Program-made: the position numbers and the translations under genes
Shown here: positions 25,472-37,941 of the stretch, piece by piece
Numbering within the stretch: the stretch's first letter is position 1
How the letters are laid out: every line of letters begins with the position of its first letter
Notes under the pieces: generated by a model
Databases searched by the model: none
Told to the model about the DNA's origin: nothing
Seen by the model: only the letters and a program-made list of their open reading frames with translations
Source of the DNA: Fervidicoccaceae archaeon
Lineage (GTDB): Archaea; Thermoproteota; Thermoprotei_A; Sulfolobales; Fervidicoccaceae
Reading direction: 5' to 3'
DNA: 64,000 nt
Assembly (NCBI GenBank): GCA_038734945.1
Contig: JAVYOA010000009.1
Location: 248,001-312,000 of the forward strand

Positions 25472-26212
25472 ATGAGCAAGTCTTTCAAAATTTCAACTCT
25501 CTTTCCTGTTGATCTAATTGTCGATGTAAACGAAGAAATTCATTCCAAGAATCTATTTGAGGAGCTGAAAAGATTGGGAATAAAGATAGCTGTTTTGAAG
25601 TTGGAAGCGGGCGACTACCTGATTCCAGCAGAAAATGGAGCAGGGATTCTGATTGAGAGAAAAAGAGACGAAGATTTCATTTCAAGCATAATTGACTCTA
25701 GATTATGGAGCCAAGCTGAGCTCCTTTCTAAAGCTTCAAAAGAAAAAGGCTTAATTTCTGTTTTGCTAATTGAAGGAGATCTTTGGAAAGCCATTAAGGA
25801 AAGGGGAATTTCGGAAACTGCTGTCATTAGATCTATAGATGAAATAGCAATTGATTTTAGAATTCCCATCATCTATACTTCTGGTCCGAAATCTACTGCC
25901 TCGTGGATTGCAGCGAAAATAAAATCGATCAATAGAAAAAGAGGAAAAGAAAAATTCCTGCCGTATGTCAGAAAAAAAGCGAGAAGCGATAGCGAAAGGA
26001 TTTTGAATTCTTTAGCCATATTGACAGGATACGAAACTGCTAGGAAACTTCTATTAAAATATAGGACACTGAAGAACGTGTATTCATGCACCATAGAAGA
26101 TCTAATGAGCATAGAGGGAATTGGAGAAACGAGAGCCAGAAAGATTTTCACACTTTTCAATCTGTCCTATGAAGAGAAAAACAATGCGGAGGCCAGGGGA
26201 GAGGAAAGATAA
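25472..26212 (+). CDS. xpf: XPF/ERCC4 structure-specific endonuclease (short crenarchaeal form)
   Basis: VDVNE, GDYL, IERKRDEDF nuclease motif, C-terminal HhH (IEGIGETRA). Confidence 0.92.
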   Translation: MSKSFKISTLFPVDLIVDVNEEIHSKNLFEELKRLGIKIAVLKLEAGDYLIPAENGAGILIERKRDEDFISSIIDSRLWSQAELLSKASKEKGLISVLLIEGDLWKAIKERGISETAVIRSIDEIAIDFRIPIIYTSGPKSTASWIAAKIKSINRKRGKEKFLPYVRKKARSDSERILNSLAILTGYETARKLLLKYRTLKNVYSCTIEDLMSIEGIGETRARKIFTLFNLSYEEKNNAEARGEER

Positions 26213-26274
26213 TGGTAGCCGGGCGGGGATTCGAACCCCGGTCGCGGGGGATCTCCCCAGCCTCCTCAACCCCC
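26213..26274 (-). tRNA. 3' half of tRNA-Gln (positions 38-76 incl. CCA; 26250-26213) with a 24-nt G-rich leader; candidate split (trans-spliced) tRNA gene
   Basis: Minus strand GGGGGTTGAGGAGGCTGGGGAGAT|C CCCCG CGAC CGGGG TTCGAAT CCCCG CCCGGCT A CCA: perfect T-arm, U72/A73 with a CCCGGCT acceptor strand typical of crenarchaeal tRNA-Gln; no D-arm or anticodon upstream. Confidence 0.85.
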
Positions 26275-26298
26275 TTAGATGTTTTTGTATCATCCCCC

Positions 26299-26310
26299 TT
26301 TTAAATTTTT
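26299..26310 (-). promoter_or_regulatory. BRE-TATA promoter of the tRNA-Gln 3' half
   Basis: Minus strand AAAAA TTTAAAA; the TATA occupies -31 to -25 relative to the first G of the leader (26274). Confidence 0.7.
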
Positions 26311-26371
26311 AATGAAAAGATCCAAGTTATCTCCCTTAAAATCTCAATCAAATCTGTATTGTATTCTGGAG

Positions 26372-27406
26372 ATGGAGAAATTGTTATCTCCTCCGCCCGA
26401 AAGCTTAAAAAAAGGGAATTTGAGAGAGGCGATGGAACTTTTTCTGAATTTACTGAGGGCAGGAGGCTCCAGCGAAAAAACTATCTTGAGCTACCGCGCA
26501 GCAATAGAGGACTTTCTAAATTCAACAGGATTGCAGAAAGCTGAAGACATAAAGCAGGAGATTATTGTTTCATGGATAAATTCAAAGCTGAAAAAAGGAG
26601 GAAGAGAGAGAAAGAAAGTTCAGGCTACAATGCATTATTATACATTGTTTGTTCGGAGATGGCTAGTTTGGCTAGGTTTCTCCAAGGATATTATTCCAGT
26701 TGTAAAGAAGCCCAGCTCATCAGAGGTAACAGCCCTTACAGAGGAAGAAGTAGAAAGACTCATGAACTCATGCAGAGATCTTACGGATTTGCTTATTGTT
26801 TCCCTCCTCTTTGAAACAGGAATGAGAGCGAATGAGCTTCTTTCTATTACAGATGATGATATAGATATCCAGAAGGGAGAGGTTGTAATTAGAAATGCTA
26901 AGTATGGCAAAGAAAGGGTTGTTTTTTTGGGAGAGATATCCAAAAAAGCTGTGGAGATGAGGCTTGAAGAACTGAGAAAGATTGGCGGAGGAAGAATTGT
27001 GAGCTTATCATATAATGGGCTATACAAGAGATTGAAGAGCTTGGCAAGAAGATCTGGATTGGACGAAGAGAAGGTTCATCCACACATTCTCAGACATACT
27101 TTTGCTACCGTTGCTATACGAAGAGGTATGAGCCTTCCTGCTCTGCAGAGAATACTTGGTCATTCTGATATAAAGATCACTCAAGTCTACATGCACCTCG
27201 TAAAGGATGATTTGAAGAGAGAATACAGAGAAAAATTCTTTAAAGAAACCATGATCTCAGAAAAAATTAACTCCAACCCAGCAGAAAAGAAGAAAATCAA
27301 CTATTGCCCAAATTGTGGAAGCAGAATAATACCTGGTTCAAAATTCTGTCCATACTGTGGATTCCATCTTGAGTTGAATTCTGAAGCAGCAGAAGATGTT
27401 TCATGA
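26372..27406 (+). CDS. xerA: Tyrosine recombinase XerA-like with C-terminal zinc ribbon
   Basis: N-terminal SEKTILSY, catalytic ETGMRANE, HPHILRHTFAT, LGHSDIKITQVY; CPNC...CPYC tail; start set at ATG 26372; flanked by housekeeping genes. Confidence 0.88.
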   Translation: MEKLLSPPPESLKKGNLREAMELFLNLLRAGGSSEKTILSYRAAIEDFLNSTGLQKAEDIKQEIIVSWINSKLKKGGRERKKVQATMHYYTLFVRRWLVWLGFSKDIIPVVKKPSSSEVTALTEEEVERLMNSCRDLTDLLIVSLLFETGMRANELLSITDDDIDIQKGEVVIRNAKYGKERVVFLGEISKKAVEMRLEELRKIGGGRIVSLSYNGLYKRLKSLARRSGLDEEKVHPHILRHTFATVAIRRGMSLPALQRILGHSDIKITQVYMHLVKDDLKREYREKFFKETMISEKINSNPAEKKKINYCPNCGSRIIPGSKFCPYCGFHLELNSEAAEDVS

Positions 27407-27593: not shown

Positions 27594-27776
27594 GTGTTCG
27601 GAATGAAAAAGCTAAAAGTTAAAAAAATTGCAATGATCGGAAAGCATCTTTACTTGGAGCTCCCCATCGAATGGACTTCGAGAAATAATCTATCGCCTGG
27701 AGACACTGTTTATGTAGTCGACTCAAATGGTGAGCTAAGAATAATACCTTTGCCATCCCAAGGAAGAACAAAGTAA
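27594..27776 (+). CDS. Small AbrB/SpoVT family DNA-binding protein
   Basis: KKIAMIGKHLYLELPIEW...LSPGDTVYV...LRIIP. Confidence 0.8.
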   Translation: MFGMKKLKVKKIAMIGKHLYLELPIEWTSRNNLSPGDTVYVVDSNGELRIIPLPSQGRTK

Positions 27777-27786
27777 GTGAGGTTAA

Positions 27787-28779
27787 ATGGTCGAGATAAG
27801 GAAAGTACAGAAATTAGGAACTTCATCTCTTATAATAACTTTGCCGAAAACTTGGGTTAACAGACTAGGTATAAGACCTGGAGATTCCGTCTACTTAGTT
27901 GAAAAAGAAAGAGAGCTAAGAATAATTCCATTTCAAGGAGAAGGAGAATTTACAGTCTTACTGAAAAATGAAGCAGTAAAGGAAAAGGATGTTACAAAAA
28001 TATTGAGATGTGCTATGATGATGGGCTTCTCAAAGATAAGGATAAAGTTTGAATCTCCCATAACAAAAAATGAGGAAAATATCATCAGCTCAGTTGTTTC
28101 TCTCGACAGAGACTATGAAGGGAAAGTTGTAGATCCATTTACCTACGATGTGAACCTAGTAAATAGGATAGGTATCGAGGAAGTTGGCGCTATGATTAGA
28201 GAAACGCTCTCGTTATTAGAAAAATCTCTTATGCAGCTAGCAGAGGCGGTTGAATCTCTCTCTCCAAAAATTCTCGAAGATCTGGAGAGAACGCAGAAGC
28301 TATTAGAGCAAAGGAGATTCAATAGAAAGCATGTGGCAAGGATAATTGAGGGCAGTAGGGGAGACCTCATTGAAGAAAGAAGAGTATGCTCCTTTGTCTA
28401 CTCATCTTATAACGTGTGCATGGGATTCAACAGTCTTCACAGATCACTAATTGAGATTGTCAAGGAAATTGGACCAGAGGGAATAGTTAGCAGAGAAAAT
28501 GCTGAGCTAATAAAAAAGATAATTTCGATGTATTTGAATGCTCTCTGGGAGACAATTGGAGCATTGACAAATGAGAGCCTAAAAAGAATAGACAATGCAA
28601 GGGAAATTCTGACAAATCTAGCTTCTTATTACAGGACTATATTCAAAAATGAAAATATCAAGAACCCCGCTATTATGGGAATATTAGTAACAATACTCAA
28701 CTCACTTAGATACTTTGAAGTACTTCTGGAAGATATCTATTGCTATATTGAGTCAAAGAACTTAGAATTTGTTGTCTAA
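27787..28779 (+). CDS. AbrB-domain PhoU-like regulator
   Basis: IRKVQKLGTSSLIITLPKTWV...IRPGDSV followed by a helical PhoU-like region. Confidence 0.8.
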   Translation: MVEIRKVQKLGTSSLIITLPKTWVNRLGIRPGDSVYLVEKERELRIIPFQGEGEFTVLLKNEAVKEKDVTKILRCAMMMGFSKIRIKFESPITKNEENIISSVVSLDRDYEGKVVDPFTYDVNLVNRIGIEEVGAMIRETLSLLEKSLMQLAEAVESLSPKILEDLERTQKLLEQRRFNRKHVARIIEGSRGDLIEERRVCSFVYSSYNVCMGFNSLHRSLIEIVKEIGPEGIVSRENAELIKKIISMYLNALWETIGALTNESLKRIDNAREILTNLASYYRTIFKNENIKNPAIMGILVTILNSLRYFEVLLEDIYCYIESKNLEFVV

Positions 28780-36018: not shown

Positions 36019-36939
36019 TTGATCGGAATAATATCGCACTGGGATATAGATGGCATTGCTTCGGCAGCAATGTTAGCCACTACTCTTGGAGTATCGAAAG
36101 ACAACATAAGGCTTTCAAGTACAACTAAGACGCATTATTATTTAAAGGAGCTCAAAAAAGCCAGAGCGAAGGAAATATACATAGCAGATCTCAATCCCGG
36201 ACCGGATATAGCTGAACTGATCCTCAAGGAAACTACTAAAAAATGTCAGACAAGAATTCACTGGATAGATCACCATCTTTGGGATGACGATACTCTAGAA
36301 ACACTAAAGCTCTGCTCAAACATAGAGCTCATTTTATCTCCTAGCGCTGAATGCACATCGAAACTTATAAGCCAAACAGTTCTTAGAGGCTATGATATTC
36401 CCAGCCACTTGCTTGACCTCATGAATCTAGCAGAGGACGATGATACATATTCAAACAAGTACGAATTAACTCCAAAATGGAGAATAATTTTGAGATGGGG
36501 CGATTGGGAAATTAGATATAAAACCCTGGAGAGCTGGATAGATGGATATATTTGGCCTAAATGGGCGCAGGAGTTCTATGAAAAGGCCCACAGAGAGTAT
36601 AGAGAACTCATGGAAAAGGCAATAGGAACAGCAGAATACTCACTATTTGATGAAAAGAGAATAATCTTTCTCTACCCAAGCGAAAAGATTCATCCTGGAG
36701 ATCTGCAGAGATTTGTTGAGGAAAGAAGCGGTTCAAAAGCAGATGTCTATGTTTTTGTTTATAAAAAGGGAATTAGCTTGAGAAGCAAAACAGTAGATGT
36801 ATCTCTCCTTGCAAAGGCAATGGGCGGTGGAGGACATAAATATGCAGCAGGAGTTATTCTGAGAGAGCCTCTAGAAGATAAGGAGAGCATAAAGCAAAGG
36901 ATAGTCTCTATTTTCAAAAAGATCTATCAGAGAAAGTGA
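36019..36939 (+). CDS. DHH/DHHA1 family phosphoesterase
   Basis: SHWDIDG, IADL, WIDHH, ISLRS, GGGGHKYAAG. Confidence 0.92.
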   Translation: MIGIISHWDIDGIASAAMLATTLGVSKDNIRLSSTTKTHYYLKELKKARAKEIYIADLNPGPDIAELILKETTKKCQTRIHWIDHHLWDDDTLETLKLCSNIELILSPSAECTSKLISQTVLRGYDIPSHLLDLMNLAEDDDTYSNKYELTPKWRIILRWGDWEIRYKTLESWIDGYIWPKWAQEFYEKAHREYRELMEKAIGTAEYSLFDEKRIIFLYPSEKIHPGDLQRFVEERSGSKADVYVFVYKKGISLRSKTVDVSLLAKAMGGGGHKYAAGVILREPLEDKESIKQRIVSIFKKIYQRK

Positions 36940-37812: not shown

Positions 37813-37941
37813 CGGTCCGGGCCGGCCATAGCGGCTGGGCAACACCCGGTCTCGTCAGATCCCGGAAGTTAAGCCGGCCGCGTTGGGGCTCCCAGTGAGC
37901 GCCGAGAGGGCTCGCAGGGACCCCAAGCTGGTGCCGGACCG
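37813..37941 (+). rRNA. rrf: 5S rRNA (stand-alone)
   Basis: GC-rich island with GGCCATAGCGG, CACCCGG, CCCGGAAGTTAAGCC; terminal stem CGGTCCGG/CCGGACCG; TTTAAA box about 25 nt upstream; exact mature ends uncertain. Confidence 0.96.

Follow-up and report, generated by a model that had tools for sequence, protein, structure and literature searches.

The minus strand of a 64,000-nt stretch of DNA from a hot-spring Fervidicoccaceae archaeon (GCA_038734945.1, contig JAVYOA010000009.1, positions 248,001-312,000 of the forward strand; hereafter, the window) carries a segment that resembles the 3' half of a tRNA-Gln and nothing of its 5' half. Is this segment a gene that contributes to a working tRNA and, if so, where is the remainder of that tRNA encoded? 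Split tRNA genes are rare, amounting to 29 half genes in seven genomes in the tally given in a 2014 review (PMC4033280), and they are central to an old debate: either tRNAs started out as two half molecules, or the split forms derive, late, from genes that contained introns. The genome to which the window belongs (G000) is a 9-contig assembly that is 99.95% complete. Its family (f1) is represented by eight genomes, G000 and seven relatives, which include a one-contig genome (G004) and two less complete ones (G003, 71%; G006, 91%).

The half gene spans positions 26213-26274 of the window, minus strand, and all of its elements are read on that strand. Its exon (26213..26250) corresponds to tRNA-Gln positions 38-76 and reads directly, from C38 at 26250, as CCCCG, CGAC, CGGGG, TTCGAAT, CCCCG, CCCGGCT, A and CCA, ending at 26213; it comprises the 3' strand of the anticodon stem, a 4-nt variable loop, the T arm, the 3' strand of the acceptor stem, A73 and an encoded CCA. 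The exon is preceded by a leader of 24 nt in total. The outermost part of this leader, GGGGGTTGAGGAGGCTGG (26257..26274), pairs with the trailers of the two 5' halves described below, and it is followed by GGAG (26253..26256), which lies opposite C32-U33-Y34-U35 as one strand of the central 4-bp helix of a bulge-helix-bulge (BHB) motif. The 3-nt bulge A-U-C38 (26250..26252), as placed by a gap-free register and by constrained cofolds, spans the junction, and the endonuclease cut is predicted to fall between 26251, the last leader base, and 26250, the first exon base. Upstream of the leader lies a BRE/TATA-like element (26299..26310), composed of a purine run (AAAAA) and TTTAAAA (26305-26299), that would act as the promoter. 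The box had been placed 25 nt from the leader in the first-pass annotation of this DNA, and the actual distance is 24 nt. At the level of motifs, each half in G000 and its relatives has a TATA-like box at an upstream distance of 24-35 nt, and the family's other 3' halves show, on inspection by eye, an A/T-rich box that precedes the leader helix by 22-32 nt. After the CCA, a pyrimidine-rich tail, TTATCTTTCC (26203..26212), overlaps the stop codon of a convergent Hef/XPF-like gene (ORF end 26212) and may act as a terminator.

The first-pass annotation had described the element as a stand-alone 3' half, with tRNA similarity ending at the 37/38 splice position and no 5' part in the window, and on each of these points the description was borne out. 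No tRNA is called in the window by ARAGORN, and the sole Rfam match at gathering score is a 5S rRNA, the element itself scoring 21 bits with the tRNA model against a cut-off of 29. The likeness to the intron-less tRNA-Gln genes of relatives starts precisely at C38, and cis tRNA-Gln genes throughout the order have a 3' part that differs from this exon at 0-1 positions. No 5' part of a tRNA-Gln is present within the window; the only two in G000 lie on contigs C3 and C4.

These two 5' halves are the complementary partners that the same annotation had predicted to exist elsewhere in the genome. A search of G000 for AGCCGGG...CGGGGCT[CT]TGG with a leader-complementary sequence behind it returned a single instance with anticodon UUG (C3:24325-24362, minus strand) and a single instance with anticodon CUG (C4:17898-17935, plus strand). 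Their exons are the same except at position 34, each carries a trailer complementary to the leader, and both are flanked by ordinary genes with no mobile-element genes nearby. The accompanying expectation that intact tRNA-Gln genes would be missing also agrees with the data: ARAGORN reports 43 tRNA genes in G000, none of them for Gln, the Rfam tRNA model yields 41 hits above its cut-off, none at a Gln locus, and the pattern of a cis tRNA-Gln gene has no match in this genome. Both finders have blind spots in G000, missing heavily interrupted genes (Trp and Thr(CGU) are not found and Thr(UGU) is mis-called), and a hidden, very unusual tRNA-Gln gene is therefore conceivable. In silico ligation of the 3' half with the UUG or the CUG 5' half gives 76-nt sequences that ARAGORN recognizes as tRNA-Gln(ttg) and tRNA-Gln(ctg), respectively, and these products, compared by eye, differ at 2 positions from the intron-less gene of a relative (L028). 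The enzymes for processing are encoded as well, with two tRNA_int_endo genes (C1:82711-82965 and C2:192847-193083; 103 and 44 bits) and one RtcB gene (C3:17402-18709; 584 bits).

We consider it highly probable that the window element is a real, independently transcribed 3'-half gene and that G000 encodes tRNA-Gln only in three pieces, two 5' halves and one 3' half. In the mechanism that we propose from these genes, the GC-rich trailer of each 5'-half transcript would anneal to the leader of the 3'-half transcript through 11-14 contiguous base pairs, some 16-17 in all. The duplex would run into a BHB consisting of a 3-nt bulge G36-G37-N, the 4-bp helix C32-U33-Y34-U35/GGAG and the 3-nt bulge A-U-C38, stacked on the anticodon stem. 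A splicing endonuclease formed from two EndA paralogues, as in the heteromeric enzymes of Crenarchaeota, would then cut after G37 and before C38, and RtcB would ligate the exons into 76-nt tRNA-Gln(UUG) and tRNA-Gln(CUG). A G opposite position 34 can pair with either C or U, and hence one 3' half could serve both isoacceptors. The available RNA run (X15, from the same study as one of the DNA runs) gave 0 reads over 12 kb in about 3 in 100 of the run, and since this held even over the 5S rRNA gene, it constitutes no test of transcription.

The specificity of the leader-trailer pairing was evaluated against the rest of the genome. The leader forms duplexes of -35.1 kcal/mol with the UUG trailer on C3 and of -33.2 kcal/mol with the CUG trailer on C4; among random 25-mers of G000 paired with the leader (mean -11.1, sd 4.5), 1 in 20000 reached the latter value. 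Matches to the leader complement with at most 4 mismatches number 27 in G000, one of which is the leader itself, and 2 are located directly 3' of a Gln 5' half. A blind screen, in which tRNA-like 5' parts (14) and 3' parts (38) lying outside ARAGORN genes were matched by acceptor-stem complementarity only, gave 3 pairs: two link the window 3' half to the Gln 5' halves, one to each, and the third is an unrelated CAU tRNA that is split as well.

The GGAG/C32-U33-Y34-U35 helix and A-U-C38 bulge put forward in the first-pass annotation can be formed, in a gap-free register with 3-nt bulges on both strands and four standard central pairs, by all 13 cognate pairs of the family, with position 34 engaged in a U-G pair in five of them, a C-G pair in five and a U-A pair in three. 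The central helix of the UUG pair in G000 includes two U-G pairs. An unconstrained cofold at 37 C returns the acceptor and anticodon stems and the leader-trailer helix for the UUG pair of G000 and a non-cloverleaf fold for the CUG pair; because of the latter, folds with only the anticodon stem fixed were used instead, together with the gap-free register count. In these folds a 3-nt 5' bulge is obtained for 11 of the 13 pairs and the full 4-bp central helix for only 4 of 13. The minimum-energy fold of the CUG pair in G000 has a 2-nt rather than a 3-nt 5' bulge, and its junction is at best a relaxed form of the BHB motif.

It is on this asymmetry between the two trailers that the best-surviving alternative draws. 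It holds that only the UUG pairing is functional, the CUG 5' half being a decaying copy, and that the UUG tRNA decodes CAG by wobble; decoding of both Gln codons is in principle within the reach of a tRNA with U34. In the gap-free register, from the bulge onward, the UUG trailer is near-perfect, pairing at 16 of 18 positions in G000 and 18 of 18 in G002, whereas the CUG trailers require an internal loop after 2-3 bp; in G000, a 2x1 internal loop, whose 2-nt side lies in the leader, separates the first 3 bp from a further 14 bp. Against such decay, a CUG trailer-leader helix of 13-14 bp is kept in genus g1, the CUG trailer and the leader of genus g3 have changed in concert, and the CUG exon departs from the UUG exon at position 34 alone. 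Furthermore, six of the eight family genomes retain an intact CUG 5' half preceded by a TATA-like box, the other two being 91% and 61% complete. Shared leaders keep G, not A, opposite position 34, and the design of two 5' halves and one 3' half recurs in two other families, as detailed below. On balance we regard the loss of CUG function as improbable.

The family-wide comparison provides further evidence for the three-piece reading. All eight f1 genomes carry 5' halves, 14 in total, and the cis tRNA-Gln pattern is absent from all seven relatives of G000, versus its presence in 217 of 325 genomes in the order. One 3' half accompanies two 5' halves in G000, G001, G002 and G004. The leader core is identical in G001 and G002, and in other genera it differs yet stays complementary to the trailers. 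For 13 of the 14 trailers the best leader is one of their own genus. The exception is the CUG trailer of G003, for which no clear leader was identified in the 71%-complete assembly. In G005, two 3' halves are present, one per trailer, and each prefers its own partner (-33.7 vs -11.9 and -34.5 vs -27.3 kcal/mol). The same division extends to the nucleotide that faces position 34: it is G in shared 3' halves and in the CUG-dedicated 3' half of G005, and A in the UUG-dedicated 3' halves of G005, G003 and G007, with the exception of G006, where G lies opposite U34. The correspondence offers a sequence rule for half-sharing, namely a G facing the wobble base. G006 has a second 3' half (L008), and a search of that 91%-complete genome at up to 3 mismatches detected no CUG 5' half to partner it. 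Two further candidates for second Gln 3' halves were rejected: G004:956497-956525 forms the end of a CAU tRNA that contains an intron and whose acceptor stem is different, and G002:C7:36641-36683 is the orthologue of the 3' part of the split CAU tRNA.

The surroundings of the 3' half bring up a second, highly improbable explanation, in which the segment is a leftover attachment site: an element would have integrated into a tRNA-Gln gene by means of a recombinase and left behind a functionless duplicate of its 3' part. A tyrosine recombinase gene with a C-terminal zinc ribbon (26279..27406, plus strand; Pfam Phage_integrase, 8.5e-33), whose true start is probably the ATG at 26372, does lie divergently beside the 3' half, and the 3' parts of tRNAs are usual integration targets in Crenarchaeota according to the accounts in PMC3218864 and PMC4033280. 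This recombinase is, however, a single-copy XerA-like gene and not a prophage integrase. It matches only itself in G000, is present in one copy in each of five relatives searched, and covers the whole profile of the NCBIfam model recomb_XerA_Arch, at 211.4 bits against a cut-off of 220. In two relatives it lies apart from the 3' half (180 kb in G004, 9 kb in G005); its adjacency, found only in genera g1 and g5, was also discarded as a marker of the split and as evidence for a mechanism. On the opposite side, the half gene abuts a convergent ERCC4/Hef-XPF-type nuclease gene (25472..26212, plus strand; Pfam ERCC4, 6.9e-24; NCBIfam Hef/Xpf models score under their cut-offs), which also adjoins the 3' half in G001, G002 and G006. 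The order nuclease, 3' half, recombinase is conserved in two genera, and is therefore not the product of a recent insertion. The remaining flanking genes in the window encode an ABC transporter, an AbrB-domain protein, UppS and S8e, and no further mobile-element genes lie near the 3' half. A direct repeat of the attachment-site type, which the first-pass annotation had named as a sign against its own reading, is absent: the 3' segment is single-copy in G000, where its other matches are 19-nt T-arm stretches inside other tRNAs, and G000 holds no intact tRNA-Gln with which it could form a repeat and no element-borne integrase accompanied by mobile genes. A leftover site would, moreover, leave unexplained the complementarity of the leader to two distant trailers and its co-variation with them.

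That the pieces belong to one very long cis transcript, or that their separation is an artefact of assembling a metagenome bin, has a negligible probability, for while those of G000 do fall on three contigs (C3, C4 and C9) of the assembly, so that the distances between them are unreadable from this genome, none of these pieces comes closer than 17 kb to a contig end, the three pieces of G004 map to 102 kb, 963 kb and 1009 kb of one contig, at separations of 46 kb and 907 kb, in G003, G006 and G007 the 3' half is 3.4-3.8 kb from its UUG 5' half and on the opposite strand, and, among the contigs of an independent DNA run (X4) that match this stretch of the window, one extends from the interior of the 3' exon through the leader into the recombinase gene.

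The three-gene encoding of tRNA-Gln extends beyond the family. Two 5' halves and one 3' half with complementary tails, each on a separate contig, are found in G045 and G046 (family f7) and in G215 and G216 (family f3), and these gene counts, together with those of the four f1 genomes named above, match the earlier proposal that one 3' half serves both Gln isoacceptors. Elsewhere in the order, cis tRNA-Gln genes with a 37/38 intron have identical or near-identical exons and the same junction geometry; their introns end in GGGGAGAT/GGGGAGAA, the same as the leader and inclusive of its GGAG. They differ from the genes of G000 in that their exons form part of one transcript and not separate genes. 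The cis exons are mostly 13-61 nt apart, with distances of up to 271 nt and, in L011, of about 745 nt. With the same exons throughout, the order thus presents a graded series: no intron, an intron of 13-61 nt, an intron of 127-271 nt, halves some 150-750 nt apart, and dispersed halves, with the 3' end of the intron retained as leader all along the series. The likely ancestor is an ordinary tRNA-Gln gene that had a canonical intron at 37/38 and became separated within it, and one 5' half with its trailer was likely duplicated afterwards and then changed at position 34. The graded series with its retained intron end supports this late, intron-derived origin and makes it testable.

A broader version of this proposal would have all Gln decoding in f1 and at least two other lineages of the order depend on trans-splicing from three genes, a system whose anticodon cassettes are exchangeable and which derived late from intron-containing genes by separation within the intron followed by duplication of a 5' half, with the leader subsequently held at G opposite position 34, where it fits both anticodons, and with every intermediate present in the order. 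We judge the chances of this full scenario being right or wrong to be about equal. If it is right, the order would furnish a natural series in which to test whether split tRNAs are derived or ancestral.

Among known systems, the closest is the tRNA-Glu of Nanoarchaeum equitans, in which tRNA-Glu(UUC) and tRNA-Glu(CUC) share one 3' half (Randau et al. 2005, as related in PMC3218864, PMC4033280 and PMC4390854). By these accounts, the two systems have in common a pair of 5' halves that differ in their anticodon, a single 3' half, a 37/38 junction, GC-rich complementary leader and trailer, a (relaxed) BHB and processing by the splicing endonuclease. They differ in the amino acid, here Gln, and in the phylum and lifestyle of the host, N. 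equitans being a reduced symbiont; the arrangement reported here is also family-wide and recurs in two more families. Trans-splicing of the N. equitans tRNA-Glu is backed by RNA data, whereas that of the G000 tRNA-Gln is predicted from the genes. Within the literature searched, which comprised the main text of openly accessible articles, no crenarchaeal split tRNA-Gln was found, in line with the first-pass annotation, and the only split tRNA-Gln is the tRNA-Gln(UUG) of N. equitans, given as split at 32/33 (Table 1 of PMC3218864; PMC4390854). It shares tRNA identity and the use of half genes with the present system, yet in those sources UUG is the only tRNA-Gln given as split, and there a single 5' half and a single 3' half meet at 32/33 and not at 37/38. 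The lineage of N. equitans is unrelated, which implies an independent origin of its split tRNA-Gln.

The crenarchaeal split tRNA-Asp comes from the same broad group and, as described, likewise combines a 37/38 split with complementary extensions and with relatives that have the uninterrupted or intron-containing form. Its halves are adjacent or a few kb apart, with one split tRNA reported per genome, unlike the dispersed Gln pieces, as seen in G004, and their single 3' half serving two 5' halves. Caldivirga maquilingensis, with its split and tri-split tRNAs (Fujishima et al. 2009, as summarized in PMC4033280), offers a crenarchaeal example of anticodon-bearing pieces swapped on a common partner to yield synonymous tRNAs; in that account other tRNAs and other split positions are involved and some tRNAs are in three pieces, in contrast to the two pieces per tRNA-Gln here. 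Within the literature searched, the genes described here add a tRNA not previously reported as split in Crenarchaeota and a second natural example of one 3' half common to two anticodon-bearing 5' halves. For annotation, standard tRNA finders will list such genomes as being without tRNA-Gln.

G000 also holds the split CAU (initiator-like) tRNA mentioned above and a Lys(CUU) gene divided into two parts that lie next to each other; if the broader scenario is right, these and the tRNA-Gln halves would place its tRNA set among the most fragmented outside Nanoarchaeum and Caldivirga.

The element at window positions 26213-26274 on the minus strand is a true gene for the 3' half of a split tRNA-Gln, common to two 5' halves located elsewhere in the genome. 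Direct reading of the window bore out the minus-strand sequence described in the first-pass annotation: an A-run followed by TTTAAAA (26310-26299) is separated by 24 nt from the leader GGGGGTTGAGGAGGCTGG (26274-26257), which is followed by GGAG (26256-26253), AT (26252-26251) and the tRNA 3' part starting at a C (26250-26213). From 26250 onward, the latter comprises that C, the anticodon-stem strand CCCCG, the variable loop CGAC and the T arm CGGGG-TTCGAAT-CCCCG, followed by the acceptor strand CCCGGCT, A73 and CCA, which ends at 26213. ARAGORN reported no tRNA in the window, and the sole Rfam match in the window at gathering score was a stand-alone 5S rRNA gene (37818-37936, plus strand, 49.4 bits); the 3'-half element itself scored 21 bits under the Rfam tRNA model, against a cut-off of 29.

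The genome (1.34 Mb in 9 contigs, with the window at 248001-312000 of contig C9; completeness 99.95%, contamination 0.21%) was searched for the complement of the leader with up to four mismatches. The search returned 27 places, one of which was the leader itself and two of which lay immediately after a tRNA-Gln 5' part, so that the complementary 5' halves predicted from the 3' half were both found, one with TTG and one with CTG as anticodon. The UUG 5' half (contig C3, 24362-24325, minus strand) comprises positions 1-37 followed by A and the trailer CCAGCCTCCTCCCCCC, and the CUG 5' half (contig C4, 17898-17935, plus strand) has the same 37 bases save for C at position 34, followed by TCCTCCTCCTCAACCCCC. 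In both, a TTAAAA or TTAAAT box lies 26-27 nt upstream of position 1 and a pyrimidine-rich stretch lies downstream of the trailer. Both sit among ordinary genes, the former flanked by a nucleotidyltransferase and a DUF2286 gene, the latter by a Na/H exchanger and a 2-hydroxyacid dehydrogenase.

An intact tRNA-Gln gene, the absence of which had been anticipated, was indeed not detected by any of three approaches. ARAGORN run on the whole genome returned 43 tRNA genes, none for Gln; the Rfam tRNA model returned 43 matches at E-values up to 1, 41 of them over the cut-off, with no Gln locus; and a cis-gene pattern (5' part, 1-61 nt, 3' part) had no match. ARAGORN and the Rfam tRNA model do overlook heavily interrupted tRNA genes in this genome. 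Neither tRNA-Trp nor tRNA-Thr(CGU) was found with ARAGORN, the Rfam model or a screen for orphan halves and, since they are missing from all three, more interrupted tRNA genes are probably still hidden in the genome. The third 'Met' tRNA called by ARAGORN (C4, 22843-22933, plus strand) presents a TGT (Thr) anticodon loop and a D-arm insert.

The pairing of the halves was evaluated against chance in two ways. A 25-nt slice of the leader forms duplexes of -35.1 and -33.2 kcal/mol with the two trailers, and only one in 20,000 random 25-mers from the genome reached -33.2 kcal/mol (mean -11.1, sd 4.5). In a blind screen that made no use of the leader, 14 tRNA-like 5' parts and 38 3' parts outside ARAGORN genes were matched on the sole criterion of a 7-bp acceptor stem, yielding three pairs: the window 3' half with each of the Gln 5' halves, and one unrelated split tRNA with a CAU anticodon. 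When joined in silico, the halves were called as tRNA-Gln(ttg) and tRNA-Gln(ctg), each of 76 nt, and the joined sequence differs from the intron-less tRNA-Gln of a relative (locus L028) at two positions by eye, 9 and 45. The trailer of the UUG half pairs with the leader without gaps at 16 of 18 positions, and that of the CUG half through three pairs, then a 2x1 internal loop whose leader side has 2 nt, then a helix of 14 bp. In a register anchored on the junction, C32-U33-Y34-U35 is paired opposite GGAG, flanked by two 3-nt bulges (G36-G37 plus the first trailer base, and A-U-C38), with the leader-trailer helix coming next. The predicted folds are less tidy than this bulge-helix-bulge as drawn: with the anticodon stem alone fixed, minimum-energy folds of 13 pairs from the family presented the 3-nt 5' bulge in 11 cases and a complete central helix of 4 bp in 4 cases, and an unconstrained cofold of the CUG pair gave no cloverleaf. 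As for processing enzymes, the genome has genes for two tRNA_int_endo proteins (103 and 44 bits), matching the expectation of a heteromeric endonuclease in a crenarchaeon, and for a single RtcB (584 bits). From the precedent of proven split tRNAs, we infer that the halves would be transcribed, cleaved and ligated.

Stand-alone 5' halves, 14 in total, are present in all eight genomes of the family, which span five genera, and the cis tRNA-Gln pattern is absent from all seven relatives, versus its presence in 217 of 325 genomes of the order. Two 5' halves share a single 3' half in the three genomes of genus g1 (the source genome, G001 and G002) and in G004 (genus g3), where they map on one contig at 102 kb (CUG), 963 kb (UUG) and 1009 kb (3' half); a further partial 3'-half match in G004 belongs to a different tRNA. 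G005 (g4) has two halves of each kind, with one trailer per leader (-33.7 vs -11.9 and -34.5 vs -27.3 kcal/mol). One 5' half and two 3' halves were found in G006 (g5, 91% complete), two and one in G003 (g2, 71% complete), and one of each in G007 (g2, 61% complete). Leaders and trailers vary from genus to genus with their complementarity kept; 13 of the 14 trailers have their best-pairing leader within their own genus, and no clear leader partner was identified for the CUG trailer of G003. All 13 cognate pairs have four standard pairs in the central helix. Shared 3' halves carry G opposite position 34 (GGAG in g1, AGAG in g3), as does the CUG-dedicated 3' half of G005 (AGAG), and UUG-dedicated 3' halves carry A (GAAG in G005, G003 and G007), with the exception of G006, where the UUG-dedicated leader reads GGGG. 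This co-variation is what the split-tRNA model predicts, and it lends direct support to the earlier proposal that a G opposite position 34 lets one 3' half serve both anticodons. The three genes, the leader-trailer complementarity and the co-variation are all directly observed in the genomes.

The 3' segment could instead be the trace of an integration event, that is, a leftover attachment site, a reading suggested by the tyrosine recombinase encoded divergently from it (26279-27406, plus strand, start probably at 26372). This protein, XerA-like with a C-terminal zinc-ribbon extension, covers the entire archaeal XerA model (211 bits, cut-off 220), is the only tyrosine recombinase of the genome and is single-copy in five relatives. 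The attachment-site reading is very unlikely on these grounds and because neither a repeat of the 3' segment nor the intact tRNA-Gln that it would accompany was found in the genome. The recombinase adjoins a Gln 3' half in g1 and g5 only, lying 9 kb off in G005 and 180 kb off in G004, and its adjacency is taken as conserved gene order rather than integration. G001, G002 and G006 share the arrangement Hef/XPF nuclease, 3' half, recombinase; G004 and G005 do not. Downstream lie a small ORF with an AbrB/MazE-type domain (27612-27764, plus strand) and a 330-aa protein whose N terminus has the same domain and which otherwise matches no recognised family (27787-28779, plus strand); two more copies of the domain occur elsewhere on contig C9.

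Across the order, the 37/38 introns of cis tRNA-Gln genes end in GGGGAGAT or GGGGAGAA, as the leader does. Named public genomes were scanned for the junction motif, giving 95 stretches, 80 of which were retrieved. A 5' part lay within 400 nt upstream in 50 of them (spacers of 13 to 271 nt) and was present with an additional insert in 5; the remaining 25 had none within 400 nt, most of them with an A/T-rich box upstream. At loci L011 and L027 the halves lie about 745 and 150 nt apart, respectively, with complementary tails. Under strict patterns, a manual comparison of the lists leaves 40 genomes in the order, including the source genome, with a 5' part and no cis gene, among them 6/6 genomes of genus g29 and 10/10 of genus g71. 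In the two genomes checked in each of these genera, two 5' halves and one 3' half occupy separate contigs, the trailers can pair with the leader, and GGAG faces positions 32-35; the three-gene tRNA-Gln design therefore occurs outside the family too. In two genomes of another genus (G036, locus L012; G016, locus L019), a Gln 3' half with a GC-rich leader lies about 50 nt behind another complete tRNA (positions 1450-1550, approximately), with which it may be co-transcribed; each has two 5' parts and, by pattern, a single cis gene. The hot-spring metagenome DNA run X4 contains the window's stretch at 95-100% identity. Contigs from other organisms in X4 have the 3' exon in common with the window and part from it at the exon boundary or slightly upstream (window 26241-26257). 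In one of them the leader type found at locus L109 follows, so several organisms whose split tRNA-Gln genes carry different tails live together in that hot spring.

Besides those of Caldivirga, Chan, Cozen and Lowe (2011; PMC3218864, including Table 1) give Asp(GUC) and Lys(CUU) as crenarchaeal split tRNAs; the only split tRNA-Gln listed there is that of N. equitans (UUG, split at 32/33), whose tRNA-Glu(UUC) and (CUC) have one 3' half common to both. The same set is cited in the portions consulted of reviews from 2014 and 2015 (PMC4033280, PMC4390854) and of a 2025 endonuclease paper (PMC12397907). The literature searched, comprising openly accessible main texts, yielded no account of a split tRNA-Gln in a crenarchaeon.

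Other fragmented tRNAs lie outside the window. The parts of the split CAU tRNA are encoded 2.4 kb apart on opposite strands of contig C2 (38731-38790, plus; 36266-36400, minus). Its 5' part ends at about position 30 with trailer GGGCTACCGCC; its 3' part, conserved in G002 (L145), has leader GGCGGTAGCCC, includes the anticodon loop and carries an additional 22-nt canonical intron at 37/38. An A1-U72 pair and, at the base of the anticodon stem, three G-C pairs make this tRNA initiator-like; G1-C72 is present in the genome's two other true CAU tRNAs. The tRNA-Lys(CUU) gene (C9, 427908-428140, plus strand) consists of two parts about 150 nt apart, with GCCCGATACCCC as trailer and GGGGTATCGGGC as leader; a T-run lies behind the first part and a TATA-like box ahead of the second. 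ARAGORN calls the gap a 156-nt intron; with its adjacent halves, the arrangement resembles the Staphylothermus-type split near 30/31.
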